Below are positions 8,501 through 11,500 of a stretch of 14,028 nt of DNA, one piece after another. How positions within the stretch are numbered: the first letter of the stretch is position 1; each line of letters starts with the position of its first letter. The DNA is from Candidatus Iainarchaeum sp. (GTDB lineage: Archaea; Iainarchaeota; Iainarchaeia; Iainarchaeales; JAFCCJ01). Location: NCBI GenBank assembly GCA_043816965.1, contig JBDRHK010000090.1, positions 1 through 14,028 of the forward strand. The letters run 5' to 3'. A program made the position numbers.

Positions 8501-11500
8501 CAATATTCCTTTTTCCCATAAATTCCGCAATGCTCCCATGCCACATAGAATCGGTGTCTGCAATAACCCCGTCGAAATCGAAAATCACCGCCTTAATTGC
8601 CATAAACCATCCCTCTCTTTTCCTCAAGCAGTTCTTTAGGGTAGAAAATCAGCGGCCTGAAGACAGGCAGTTCTGCACCAATCCTTTTCAGTTCCTTTCT
8701 CAATTTGGTTTCCCCTGAAACCAGTGCCTGAACATTTATATCTGGCTTTTCAACCAGCTGTCGCAATTTTTGCAGCGGCGTGAAAAGAAAACTCCTGAAA
8801 GAGTTCCATCTCACCAATTTTTCAACTTCCTTCTCAATTTCTTTGGATTCTTTCTCAACAACCGGGAAGATGTTGCAGCCCCTGCGCATCATTAAAAAAG
8901 CCGCGACCAAATCATCCTTTTTACCTGTAAAAAGCATAGCGACATTTCCCTCAACCCCGAGTGGCAAACCTTTTGGGCCGGGAATCTCCTCCAAATAGAT
9001 GAACATATCCTTTCCCCTAATTTCAACATTAACTTCCTTGTCTGGATTGGAAAGATTTACTTTCAGGCCGGGAAATTCCCCCATAATTTCCGAACCCAAT
9101 TTTTCCCCCAATTCCTGATTGGTCAACTCCTTATTGTCAACAACCCTTGGCCTTACTGCAAAACTATCACCCTCTTTCAAAAATCCTTTGCAGACCTCGG
9201 TCCCCTTTTCCAGAATTTTTTTCAGGTTAACGCCGTGGACTGATTCTGCCTTTGCAAAGGAATGGATTCCAAAAACAAGGGGTAAAAGGGCGTGAATTTC
9301 ATCCAGATTTTTCATTTTTTCAGGATAGAGGTAAAGCCTTCCCCCTTTCTTAACTATTCTGCTTCCGGCAAGCTTGTTTGCGCGGAAAACAGATTTCATG
9401 TTTGAGACTAATTTGTCCATGAAATATTTCCTCACAAAATGGCTTTTCAGGGAGATTTCCGAGGAAGTCTTGATCAGGAGGCAATTTGGGGAAAGCATAA
9501 ACAATTTTAAAGGCATAAGGGTTAAAATATTACTGAGTTAAATGAGTGGTCAAAACAACAAAAAGAAATGCACTTGCAACTGCTGTTGCTGCTGTTGTTG
9601 TTAGAGACCTCTCTCAAAAACTCTTTTAACCGGTTTTTTGGGGGATTACAAAACTAGAGAGATGGCTATATGAAGTTCAGAAACATCCTGGAAACTGTGG
9701 GAAACACCCCTATGGTGAGATTGAACAGGATTTCCGGAAAAGGTGCTGCGGAGATTTACGCTAAACTCGAGATGTTCAATCCAGGGGGAAGTGTAAAGGA
9801 CAGGATAGGCATAGGCATGATTGAGGATGCCGAGAGAAATGGCCTGCTTGGGAAAGAATCGGTGATTGTGGAGCCCACATCAGGAAATACGGGAATCGGC
9901 CTGGCAATTGCCGCTTCGGTGAAAGGCTACAGGGTTATTTTTGTGCTGCCGGAAAATTTCAGCATAGAGCGGCAGAAAATATTGAGGGTGTTTGGCGCCG
10001 AACTTGTGCTTACTCCCAAAGAAACAGGAATGGCCGGCGCCGTGGAAAAGGCGGAAGAATTGGTTAAATCTAACAGGAATTATTTCATGCCACAGCAGTT
10101 CAGGAATCCGGCAAATCCAGAAATCCACAGGAAAACCACAGCTAAAGAGATTTTGAAAGATCTCCCTGATTTGGATGTGTTTGTTGCCGGCATCGGGACT
10201 GGGGGAACCCTTACAGGCGTGGGAGAGGTCCTTAAGTCAAAAAATCCAGGAATAAAGGTAGTTGCTGTTGAGCCTGCAGACTCGCCGGTTCTTTCAGGCG
10301 GAAAACCAGGACAACACAAGATACAGGGGATTGGTGCCGGGTTTGTGCCAGAGGTAATGAACCGGGAAATTGTTGACGAAATAATTCAGGTAGGGAATCT
10401 GGAGGCGATAGAAACTGCAAAGCGGCTGGCGAAGGAAGAGGGAATTTTTGCGGGGATTAGCAGCGGGGCGGCGGCATTTGCGGCATTAAAAATTGCGGGA
10501 AAAATAGGGGCAGATAAAAAAATTGTAGTTATTTTGCCCGACACAGGTGAAAGATATTTATCGACAGAACTCGGGGAGGTATAAAAATGGGTTTGATAAA
10601 AACAATCAAGGCAGATATAAAAACATTCAGGGAGAATGACCCTGCGGTTAAAAGCACTCTGGAAATTTTGCTGTGTTACCACACATTCCATGCAATTCTC
10701 ATACACCGCCTTAACCATCCGCTATACAATCTCAATATTCCCATACTCCCCAGGTTTATTTCAATGGTGAACAGGTTTTTCACAGGTGTGGAAATACATC
10801 CCGGGGCAAAGATAGGAGATGGATTTTTCATAGACCATGGTACGGGAACAGTGATAGGAGAAACTGCAAATATAGGAAAGAGCTGTGTTATGTACCAGCA
10901 CGTCACTTTGGGGGGGACGGGAAAGCATACTGGAAAAAGGCATCCTACATTAGGGGAAAATGTTCTTGTGGGGGTTGGCTCAACAATTTTGGGGCCGGTT
11001 AACATTGGGGACAATGCAAAAATCGGGGCAAACACATTCATAATAATGAAGGATGTTCCTGCAAACGCGACAGTTGTTGGGGTGCCTGGAAAAATCGTGA
11101 AAATTAACGGGAGGAAAATAGTGAAGGAACTGAAGAAAACAGTCCTTCCAAATGGTTTTAAATGATTTCATAGGAAAATCTTTAAGTCTCTAGCGAGGGC
11201 GAATGGTCGGTTTCGTAGGTTCCCGAAGGGGACTAGGTGAATTCCGTGGGAATTCGCCGTCGTGTCAACTGAGATAGCAGTTGTGCTGAGGTGGCAGAGA
11301 GGCTATGCATCCGCCTGCAGAGCGGAAGATCGGGGGTTCAAATCCCTCCCTCAGCTTTATGAGAATAATGTGGATGTCAGATTCACCCAATGTTTGTTCT
11401 GGTTACGGGACAGTTACGAGGAATCTCCTTGATGGGTTAACGAAAAATACCGGGCATGAATGGCTTGCCCTGGGCTGGCAGTATGTGGGGCAGCCCACGA

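Follow-up and report, generated by a model that had tools for sequence, protein, structure and literature searches.

The window, a stretch of 14,028 nt from a Candidatus Iainarchaeum genome (contig C90), carries a cluster of cysteine genes headed by a very short open reading frame (ORF). The features of this cluster are:

9505..9512, + strand: TATA-like box TTTTAAAG, the sole TTTAWA on this strand within 9400-9545
9542..9604, + strand: Cys leader ORF MSGQNNKKKCTCNCCCCCCC, 20 codons, near-leaderless with a 5' UTR of about 6-7 nt; MSGQDNKKKCTCKCCCCCCC in the genus mate
9581..9601, + strand: seven consecutive Cys codons abutting the stop codon, the putative sensing run
9610..9645, + strand: post-stop hairpin CUCUCUCAAAA / UUUUUUGGGGG, with U-tracts at 9624-9627 and 9634-9639
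9656..9665, + strand: Shine-Dalgarno (SD)-like purine stretch of cysK, AGAGGTGA in the genus mate
9670..10584, + strand: cysK, cysteine synthase A (TIGR01139 above cut-off)
10587..11165, + strand: cysE, serine O-acetyltransferase (TIGR01172 above cut-off)
11285..11356, + strand: tRNA-Cys(GCA), closing the cys cluster here as in the genus mate; putatively co-transcribed with cysKE

Tiny leader genes of this kind, whose last codons specify the amino acid of their own operon, precede cysteine, leucine, aromatic, threonine and tryptophan genes in this small archaeon and in many of its relatives. At cysK the distance from TATA box to ATG is 36 nt. In this genome the commonest position of a leaderless start is 30 nt past the first T of TTTAWA, so transcription is predicted to begin at about 9535-9536. 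Two RNA-library contigs are identical to the window, one covering 9535-9666 and the other 11186-11323. That position 9535 coincides with the predicted start site is no more than a hint, because contigs of this kind reveal neither the termini nor the amount of an RNA, and the library may contain DNA; that cysK is uncovered is likewise not evidence. The sole contig over the leader extends beyond both U-tracts to 9666, which counts against early ending of the RNA. The post-stop hairpin (-11.1 kcal/mol) is equalled by 12 of 200 shuffles here (z -1.68) and by 1 of 200 in the genus mate (z -3.15), and between the two genomes its arms are identical and its loop has diverged. Its 5' arm would lie beneath a ribosome that stalls at the final Cys codons. 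An earlier note had taken the G-run at cysK for the ribosome-binding site. We reject this, because the run (9640-9644) ends the hairpin and lies 25 nt ahead of the start codon, too far in a genome whose SD spacing peaks 4 nt after GGTGA. The SD-like stretch can pair alternatively with post-stop CCUCUCUC, no better than in shuffles (z +1.05). A scan of the window with Rfam returned tRNA only, with no leader family and no T-box.

The same note had named three more leaders, and all four ORFs are present on re-reading: the Cys leader (C90:9542-9604, + strand), MSKGNFLNKLLVLLVLALILVL at C12:2048-2116 on the minus strand, an ORF ending in IPYFFFYW at C18:560-652 (+ strand) and one ending in TTTITGMKTTKKC at C44:2993-3073 (+ strand). 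The genes downstream of them were identified as cysK and cysE, leuA, tal/fsa, pheA, tkt and aroF, and lysC and asd; the gene after leuA is ilvB-like by its N-terminus only. The high blind rank given to these leaders recurred in an independent ranking, where they took places 1, 2, 3 and 5 among 724 upstream ORFs and places 1, 2, 3 and 4 among the 115 with a TATA-like box. When the score was at first restricted to the last 8 codons (524 ORFs), the ranks were 1, 3 and 5 and the Thr leader was missed; the Cys leader was first in all blind rankings. A fifth leader of this genome, ahead of trpE on C106, is of another type. In the following, the four are referred to as class I and the trpE type as class II.

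Class I leaders range from 7 to about 40 codons with a free N-terminal sequence and a fixed distance between run and stop. The cognate run lies 0-2 codons ahead of the stop in 73/73 Leu and Cys leaders, and in 23/25 Cys leaders the stop follows straight after the last Cys codon. The median TATA-to-ATG distance of Cys leaders, 30 nt, equals the leaderless mode in both genomes. From stop to downstream start the distance varies between 16 and more than 300 nt. Leu leaders occur at 26/30 leuA loci of Iainarchaeales, reproducing the previous count, and at 24/28 of Woesearchaeales; here and below the counts are not independent, because the genomes are related. The presence of Cys leaders in relatives also stands, at 8/23 cysK loci of Iainarchaeales (11/29 had been claimed; our query and cut-off were our own) and 17/30 of Woesearchaeales. 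The five loci of the aromatic leader were recovered, on a base of six tal loci instead of 30. The Thr leader was again found at 2/30 loci, within the genus only, and a Thr-type leader was absent from 28 other Iainarchaeales loci and 30 Woesearchaeales loci. Runs follow the pathway: Leu/Val before leuA, Ile before cimA (L161, G160). Under a strict rule that includes the TATA box, Leu-type leaders precede 36/58 leuA loci versus 4/190 other loci, and Cys-type leaders 20/53 cysK loci versus 0/195. Rows dropped before counting were L182 and L187 (Leu rule met, more than 600 nt away), L346 (trp) and the false class II matches L547, L549 and L560. His-run leaders were found at 0/20 hisG operon loci, several of which fall short of the operon 5' end; His sensing appears instead as class II, before tRNA-His/hisS.

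Metagenomes were searched blindly with a pattern of three Cys codons, a stop codon or TGG, and a post-stop motif, the target being left unspecified. It gave 42 matches, eight of them (seven distinct) with a TATA box and an in-frame ATG, and all eight of these stand before cysK/M, cysE, or tRNA-Cys plus cysS. At eight loci tRNA-Cys lies 23-112 nt past the leader stop, in 7/8 without an intervening TATA-like box at promoter distance. The plain pattern (TGY)4TRR hit 30 loci, mostly reverse-strand noise, with one short Cys-tailed ORF that does not precede a Cys gene.

A hairpin directly after the stop had been described as general to the leaders. It is typical of Leu and aromatic leaders and not of Cys leaders: p<=0.05 was reached in 14/26 and 9/22 Leu leaders, in 1/8 and 0/17 Cys leaders, and at 11/80 and 9/80 ordinary gene ends. 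Conservation of the hairpin is confined to Leu, aromatic and Thr leaders. The Leu hairpin begins 1-4 nt past the stop, and 7/7 of its pairs have two-sided changes, matched by 0/500 shuffles, with all slid controls lower. Alignment A1 contains no conserved U-tract behind the hairpin such as an intrinsic terminator would have. Past Cys leader stops the U fraction is modestly raised (0.42-0.55 versus 0.31-0.36 at ordinary gene ends), as it is in class II spacers (0.36 versus 0.31). By eye, about half of Iainarchaeales Leu leaders allow a GACUUCUG/CAGAAGUC pairing, a candidate antiterminator that is absent from the consensus fold and from this genome; a pseudoknot or alternative fold in Leu leaders was likewise seen by eye only. 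Frameshifting in the four class I leaders was rejected for want of a frame bias, open +1 versus -1 frames past the run numbering 13 versus 10 of 26 and 5 versus 5 of 22 for Leu, and 1 versus 2 of 8 and 2 versus 4 of 17 for Cys. Frame couplings do exist at tal and lysC of this genome; that at tal is lost in the genus mate.

The trpE leader appears, from its sequence, to be a +1 frameshift cassette similar to that of prfB, comprising an SD-like site, a slippery P-site codon and a single cognate "hungry" codon. A blind pattern run across all 196 Iainarchaeales genomes yielded 59 matches versus 4 for the reversed pattern; 56 are cassettes in frame with an AUG. The slot codon fits the target in 52 of these, four are undetermined and none is contrary; where a tRNA gene follows, it fits the isoacceptor in 33/33. 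Targets in relatives include cimA, ileS, hisS, thrS, lysC and tRNA-Ile/Trp/His/Pro. The P-site codon is XYY in 78/81, CUU-U being commonest (30/81); the P-sites CGG-A and GCC-A would re-pair poorly in +1. The SD-like site lies 3 nt ahead of the P-site codon, where its pairing with the 16S tail, taken from L479, reaches a maximum of -6.1 kcal/mol in a set of 36 from a protein search; the Asp codon, at which this pairing peaks, is GAT in 28/28. The +1 frame is open for at least 60 nt in 77/81, versus 16 for the +2 frame and 22 (at most 30) after shuffling. Of the 48 class II leaders without tRNA, 24 have a +1 ORF that stops at the target start, 22 of these overlapping it by 4 or 8 nt; in five the +1 ORF runs on for at least 600 nt, and in 19 it ends at no recognised start, some of the latter explained by tandem cassettes, contig ends or W-x-W endings; before tRNA genes, only 18/33 come within 15 nt of the tRNA. 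A Trp-type cassette has the form AGG-GAT-NNN-CTT-TGG, and a fusion with TrpE is predicted for L372, L373, L384 and L367. Class II alignments contain no long consensus fold, and a long-range hairpin through the Trp codon, seen by eye in Woesearchaeales trp leaders, was discarded for the same reason. In the autoregulatory +1 frameshift of prfB (RF2; PMC10798248), slow A-site decoding decides between stop and +1, and the SD-like sequence occupies the same position. The differences are that the class II A-site holds a sense codon (W, I, H, T, K or P) for the regulated amino acid and not UGA, that the cassette sits in a leader, and that the +1 frame mostly leads to the target and not through it.

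Most likely, amino-acid shortage is read by ribosomes on these tiny upstream genes and thereby switches the downstream RNA on. As the best explanation of the whole, with a probability of about 0.6, we propose that each leader gauges charged tRNA in cis through the ribosome that reads it, and takes effect at the RNA level. Its first part, ribosome-mediated amino-acid sensing, is very probable; given such sensing, RNA-level output is its probable main mode. What the data establish is the anatomy of the sequences, their conservation, the match of codon to target, the open +1 frames and the presence of FttA; translation, stalling, frameshifting and the terminating agent we infer. Transcription would start about 30 nt past the TATA box, at or a few nt ahead of the leader AUG. 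With the amino acid plentiful, the ribosome would complete the short ORF and depart, leaving the post-stop RNA naked, which is a hairpin where the leader is of Leu, aromatic or Thr type and a pyrimidine/U-rich tract in Cys leaders. There the transcript would end prematurely, the likeliest agents being the archaeal terminator-nuclease FttA/aCPSF1 or termination at a U-tract. With the amino acid short, the ribosome would remain on the post-stop RNA, and the operon, tRNA gene or synthetase gene would be transcribed. In class I it would stall on the cognate run, which abuts the stop, and would therefore cover the first 10-15 nt beyond it. In class II an SD-stimulated +1 frameshift at the hungry codon would skip the early stop and carry the ribosome 60-200 nt further, to the target start codon, into the target frame or up to the tRNA gene. 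Because cognate tRNA genes often directly follow the leader, the arrangement points to control at the RNA level, by termination or cleavage, and not at translation initiation. FttA scores above cut-off in 5/5 genomes, and further beta-CASP paralogues are present. According to PMC11616081, FttA binds U-rich nascent RNA, acts on U-rich RNA as endo- and 5'-3' exonuclease, and is proposed to exclude the ribosome.

Control could instead be translational: free leader RNA would sequester the first gene's SD by pairing, until a stalled ribosome releases it. This is how mycobacterial Ms5788A works according to Canestrari et al. (10.1101/834739), where the Cys codons themselves pair with the next SD and stalling switches the operon on. 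The gross layout is shared, a leaderless upstream ORF with a C-terminal Cys run ahead of cysteine genes; compared with Ms5788A, our leaders have no conserved Cys-codon/SD pairing, have a TATA-box promoter, and extend the design to Leu, Ile, aromatic, Thr and tRNA-gene targets. The lysC hairpin does cover the SD, as had been claimed (z -2.9), a hairpin at the cysK locus L010 covers GGAGG (z -0.3), and CCUCUCUC could engage the SD of the present cysK. Class II +1 ORFs overlap the start codons at cimA, trpE and lysC, which suggests translational coupling there. As a general rule SD unmasking was rejected: masking a modelled stalled-ribosome footprint raised SD accessibility by at least 0.25 in only 5/53 Leu and Cys leaders (2/15 Cys), and at this cysK lowered it from 0.29 to 0.23. 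The variable stop-to-start distance argues against it too, and such attenuation cannot act on tRNA genes that directly follow a leader; we consider it unlikely.

Shielding after transcription, which would cover the tRNA targets as well, seems more doubtful still. The full RNA would always be made, and the leader ribosome would protect it from cleavage or 5'-to-3' decay by an enzyme of FttA or RNase J type, or affect pre-tRNA processing. The nuclease activities of FttA and the additional beta-CASP paralogues suit this idea; open +1 frames of 60-200 nt would be better accounted for by relief of polarity than by shielding of a 5' end. The peptides might also act in trans and be merely co-transcribed, for Leu/Val runs resemble hydrophobic helices of membrane peptides and C-x-C-x-C-C-C could bind metal in a Cys-rich metal or redox peptide. 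This we hold to be very improbable, given the free N-terminus and length beside the fixed run-to-stop spacing, an amino acid that follows the pathway, even to the level of the isoacceptor, and conservation of class II at the nucleotide level (GAT). Chance ORFs in simple-sequence intergenic DNA have a negligible probability. Runs of Gln/Thr/Asn do often give TGY repeats on their reverse strand, and the Thr leader has little comparative support; against chance stand the blind-ranking, reversed-pattern, shuffle and other-gene controls, conservation in two archaeal orders and the target match in two blind searches. For Cys, Leu and class II leaders, the blind target match, Leu hairpin covariation, other-gene controls and ranking refute it.

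Enterobacterial transcription attenuators (trpL, hisL, leuL, thrL, ilvL, pheL, pheM) are SD-led short ORFs with cognate runs, and pheST is an example of a synthetase target. Our leaders resemble them in their runs, in their synthetase targets and in being multivalent (Thr/Ile/Met/Lys before lysC, Phe/Tyr/Trp before aro, Leu/Val before leuA-ilvB). They differ in that they are leaderless, that the run abuts the stop, and that no conserved 2:3/3:4 terminator-antiterminator with a U-tract was seen. As to the wording of the earlier note, "bacterial-style ribosome-mediated sensing", comparison strongly supports the sensing, through pathway-matched runs, fixed run-stop spacing, leaderless distance and near absence at other genes. 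Its bacterial style holds only in part: a terminator/antiterminator pair with a U-tract is not conserved, lysC accords with a hairpin over the ribosome-binding site whereas cysK and leuA do not, the gene after the leader is in many cases an untranslated tRNA gene, and the second class apparently frameshifts by +1. T-box riboswitches have a specifier codon, a Stem I with specifier loop and a T-box antiterminator. Class II likewise has one specifier-like codon matching the downstream tRNA, synthetase or operon, sometimes in tandem; unlike the T-box, its codon is in frame with AUG (56/56) and flanked by frameshift signals, and no large conserved RNA fold was found in it. The leaders tnaC and mgtL are Rho-dependent attenuators triggered by free Trp and Mg2+. 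There, as in the ketolide-induced frameshifting of the ermC leader, a leader ribosome blocks a termination-factor site or opens downstream RNA; the factor proposed here is FttA instead of Rho, and the trigger an uncharged-tRNA codon instead of free Trp, Mg2+ or a drug. The trp operon of M. thermautotrophicus is reported to have a two-codon Met-Trp leader, to our knowledge the only pointer in archaea to a Trp codon ahead of trpE. It fits neither of our classes. Control there is by the DNA-binding repressor TrpY (PMC6737238).

The papers searched contained no archaeal precedent for leader-peptide amino-acid sensing. According to a 2021 paper, no transcription attenuation or antitermination was known in archaea (PMC8448881), and the review by Atkins et al. 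2016 (PMC5009743) knows no productive natural hungry-codon frameshift. If our reading is true, fine, active control of amino-acid synthesis would be demonstrated for uncultured, genome-reduced DPANN cells. As short, portable test cases the leaders would serve studies of archaeal attenuation/antitermination and of hungry-codon frameshifting, and also of the competition between ribosome and FttA for nascent RNA, a question already posed (PMC8116511 and PMC11616081). The class II cassette would be a sensor of 15 nt in which a single codon determines specificity.

The chances are evenly balanced for a wider view, in which DPANN archaea have their own genome-wide, ribosome-read amino-acid control. 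Two interchangeable modules, stalling leaders and codon-programmable +1 frameshift leaders, would then have been placed on operons acquired horizontally, on synthetase genes and even on tRNA genes that stand alone, both keeping a ribosome on RNA otherwise terminated by FttA. On this view archaea would gain their first case of transcription attenuation, and hungry-codon frameshifting its first natural role in nutrient sensing, with a specificity that reaches the tRNA isoacceptor. Import of the leader together with its gene is not supported, because bacterial upstream ORFs are few and leader-bearing cysK genes are scattered. Among 76 best-match cysK loci with enough upstream DNA, three bacterial ones had a Cys-bearing upstream ORF, of other anatomy, and one was from Woesearchaeota; in a quick tree (74 rows, no clade test) the leader-bearing cysK genes spread over several clades, mixed with bacterial rows.

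The four leader ORFs that the earlier note had placed upstream of cysK, leuA, tal-pheA-tkt-aroF and lysC-asd were recovered at 9542-9604 in the window, C12:2048-2116, C18:560-652 and C44:2993-3073, in a genome of 1.34 Mb (109 contigs, 86% complete; Iainarchaeota, DPANN). This placement follows from the topoisomerase VI B subunit encoded in the window, whose named relatives belong to Ca. Diapherotrites/Iainarchaeum. Their high blind rank was upheld: with our own gene caller and amino-acid runs scored binomially, the four took places 1, 2, 3 and 5 among 724 upstream ORFs, and ranks 1-4 in the subset with a TATA-like box (n=115). 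A narrower first score (524 ORFs) put three of them at ranks 1, 3 and 5, missed the Thr leader, and left the Cys leader alone in beating all 40 shuffles. In G160, a nearly whole Woesearchaeales genome (1.40 Mb, 20 contigs), the Leu leader takes place 1 of 188 and the aromatic, Ile and Cys ones places 8, 9 and 10, a less clean ranking than in our genome. The lysC leader ends in codons for the four products of the aspartate family (Thr, Ile, Met, Lys), which fill 8 of its final 10 positions and 9 of 10 in the genus mate. Features of the cys cluster in the window are:

8593-9420, minus strand: truncated ThiI-like (THUMP) gene, divergent from the cys leader promoter
9505-9512: TATA box
9542-9604: Cys leader ORF
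9670-10584: cysK
10587-11165: cysE
11285-11356: tRNA-Cys

A contig from a groundwater RNA library is identical to window positions 9535-9666, no more than a weak hint that the leader is present as RNA. The ThiI-like gene, a sulfur-transfer gene adjoining the Cys operon, lies 121 nt from the leader ATG, an arrangement identical in the genus mate. Elsewhere in the window, an 886-aa ORF (2274-4934, plus strand) resembles, by eye, topoisomerase VI subunit A split by a putative intein with a LAGLIDADG-like domain.

On sequence grounds, the leaders are real, conserved and specific. Conservation of the Leu leader was reproduced at 26/30 leuA loci fetched from Iainarchaeales (leuA search matching in 46/151 genomes), and Leu-type leaders occur at 24/28 leuA loci in the order of a Woesearchaeota genome, two of these 24 lying more than 600 nt away and being later excluded. 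The Cys leader is likewise present in relatives, at 8/23 Iainarchaeales cysK loci with our query and cut-off (11/29 cysK-like loci in the earlier note), and at 17/30 Woesearchaeales loci, with two further at operon heads. The aromatic leader was found at 5/6 tal loci in 10 genomes searched, the earlier figure being 5/30; the Thr-type leader occurs at 2/30 Iainarchaeales loci, as claimed, and at 0/30 Woesearchaeales loci. Two Woesearchaeales genomes have Ile-run leaders ahead of cimA. Under a strict rule requiring a TATA box, the Leu rule matches 36/58 leuA loci versus 4/190 other loci, and the Cys rule 20/53 cysK loci versus 0/195 others. A blind metagenome pattern carrying no target information gave 42 matches; the 8 (7 distinct) that by eye have both a TATA box and an ATG in frame all lie upstream of cysteine synthase, cysE, or tRNA-Cys and cysS (six proteins checked). 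The unpublished genome G283 contributes a single Leu leader and a single trp cassette to the counts, and no conclusion depends on it alone. In Woesearchaeales, two Leu-run leaders stand in tandem ahead of a single leuA (L180, L181).

In these run-type (class I) leaders the TATA box stands a median 30-35 nt before the ATG, which is also where leaderless starts peak in both genomes (30 nt), and the last cognate codon falls 0-2 codons before the stop in 73/73 Leu and Cys leaders. CTA and CTG are used in Leu runs about twice as often as in leuA. The hairpin said to follow every leader at once holds for Leu leaders, with onset 1-4 nt past the stop (p<=0.05 in 14/26 and 9/22; controls 11/80 and 9/80), and compensatory changes support 7/7 pairs in 22 of 26 sequences, four divergent-looking ones being left out. 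Cys leaders mostly lack it (1/8 and 0/17), those of Woesearchaeales showing an unstructured TTCTYTCATT motif, and the cysK hairpin at 9610-9645 is borderline (12/200 shuffles as good; genus mate 1/200). A conserved CAGAAGUC motif lies 15-20 nt past the Leu hairpin (columns 58-69 and 111-118 of the Leu leader alignment A1, L020-L048) but is absent from our genome; about half of the sequences have a complementary GACUUCUG in the hairpin loop. In Woesearchaeales, many leaders of different types (Leu, Ile, aromatic, Cys) have a YCATTGTT-like motif after the hairpin or stop, a candidate termination or cleavage signal.

A fifth leader, overlooked in the earlier note, precedes trpE and belongs to a second class (class II), a putative +1 frameshift cassette:

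C106:3311-3358, minus strand: class II leader MKRRDSLWQLSFGFE, upstream of trpE (locus L599)
C106 3162-3234: tRNA-Trp, between the MKRRDSLWQLSFGFE leader and trpE

Its +1 frame ends W-H-W immediately before tRNA-Trp. The R-R-D-x-x-slot frame also precedes cimA (Ile slot) and one lysC (Lys slot), and S-D-C-x-W precedes Woesearchaeales trpE. A blind pattern fixing only TATA, ATG and AGAAGGGATY, scanned over 196 Iainarchaeales genomes, gave 59 matches in 42 of them (reversed pattern, 4), 56 in frame with the ATG and 3 false. The slot is Trp upstream of trp genes or tRNA-Trp (19), Ile upstream of cimA, ileS or tRNA-Ile (30), His upstream of tRNA-His/hisS (4), Thr upstream of thrS, Lys upstream of lysC and Pro upstream of a lone tRNA-Pro. 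With targets assigned by NCBIfam for a subset and by N-terminal likeness for the others, slot and target agree in 52/56, none is contrary, and 4 stand at contig edges or before uncalled targets. Where a tRNA lies downstream, it can read the slot codon in 33/33 (ATA with anticodon TAT, ATT with GAT). AUA is decoded in most archaea via a modified CAU anticodon; tRNA-Ile (anticodon TAT) adjoins ileS in several Iainarchaeales families (L546, L571-L574, L584, L585, L589-L591, L593).

prfB has the same arrangement (PMC10798248): an SD-like site stands 3 nt before a slippery P-site codon, which a slow A-site codon follows. Among 36 cassettes recovered by protein search, Asp is encoded by GAT in 28/28 (66% genome-wide), and pairing with the 16S tail, taken from a relative's rRNA, peaks at the SD-like site. 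Over 81 cassettes, the P-site codon has the form XYY in 78, frame 0 meets a stop at a median of 12 nt, and the +1 frame stays open over at least 60 nt in 77, against 16 for the +2 frame and 22 in 300 shuffles (maximum 30); for the 25 not found by pattern the count is 23 versus 2. All four class I leaders lack this bias. In 48 tRNA-less cassettes the +1 ORF stops at the target start in 24 (22 overlapping it by 4 or 8 nt), stays open for at least 600 nt in 5 (four into TrpE), and does neither in 19; it extends to the tRNA in 18/33 tRNA-bearing ones. At least two extra Trp codons end 17/36 trp +1 ORFs, our own (L599) among them. Tandem cassettes occur at L587, L594/L602, L554/L608 and L367, the second being in the +1 frame (two serial shifts), in the same frame or after a second promoter. 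The tal leader of G027 (L612) is a hybrid, with a class II-like G-R-D-Y-L-W cassette within an aromatic-run leader.

Taken at sequence level, the leaders very likely serve ribosomal sensing of amino acids. The bacterial-style sensing proposed earlier stands in that they would work like ribosome-mediated attenuation, but they fall outside the classical and mycobacterial families; tnaC, mgtL and T-boxes are comparison systems. M. thermautotrophicus reportedly has a two-codon trp leader. Literature searches over listings and abstracts turned up neither a leader-peptide attenuator nor an amino-acid-sensing frameshift from archaea; the sORF tables of the M. mazei and H. volcanii Ribo-seq papers could contain such leaders.

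As to the level of control, the lysC hairpin does overlap the SD, as claimed, and the G-run of the cysK hairpin is no ribosome-binding site, since the start codon is 25 nt away. A modelled stalled ribosome exposes the target SD in just 5/53 leaders. At 8 loci tRNA-Cys lies 23-112 nt past the leader stop, and at 7 of them no TATA box stands at promoter distance in the gap; as a tRNA is untranslated, the step controlled there has to be the synthesis, processing or decay of RNA. Output at the RNA level is the best reading. FttA/aCPSF1, found in 5/5 genomes tested, recognises U-rich nascent RNA, and a coupled ribosome is proposed to exclude it (PMC11616081). U-enrichment past leader stops is only modest, so FttA/aCPSF1 is a candidate for the terminating agent. 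After the Cys leaders at L280, L287, L309 and G160:C7 stand tRNA-Cys-like sequences uncalled by ARAGORN, some apparently interrupted; LAGLIDADG-like ORFs lie near L309 and L284.

Our cysK shares 60-66% identity with bacterial proteins versus 41-51% with most order mates. Since no TATA-led leader was found at close bacterial cysK loci and leader-bearing cysK genes are dispersed across a quick tree, the leaders look like an archaeal add-on. A bacterial-type trp leader (W-W-W, GC hairpin, long U-tract) upstream of trpE in a Woesearchaeales bin (L344, G269:C41) may be contamination or a recent transfer. Three bacterial cysK loci (L104, L109, L115; Chloroflexia, Ignavibacteriales) have Cys-bearing ORFs upstream, with hairpins and U-tracts behind them, possibly bacterial Cys attenuators.
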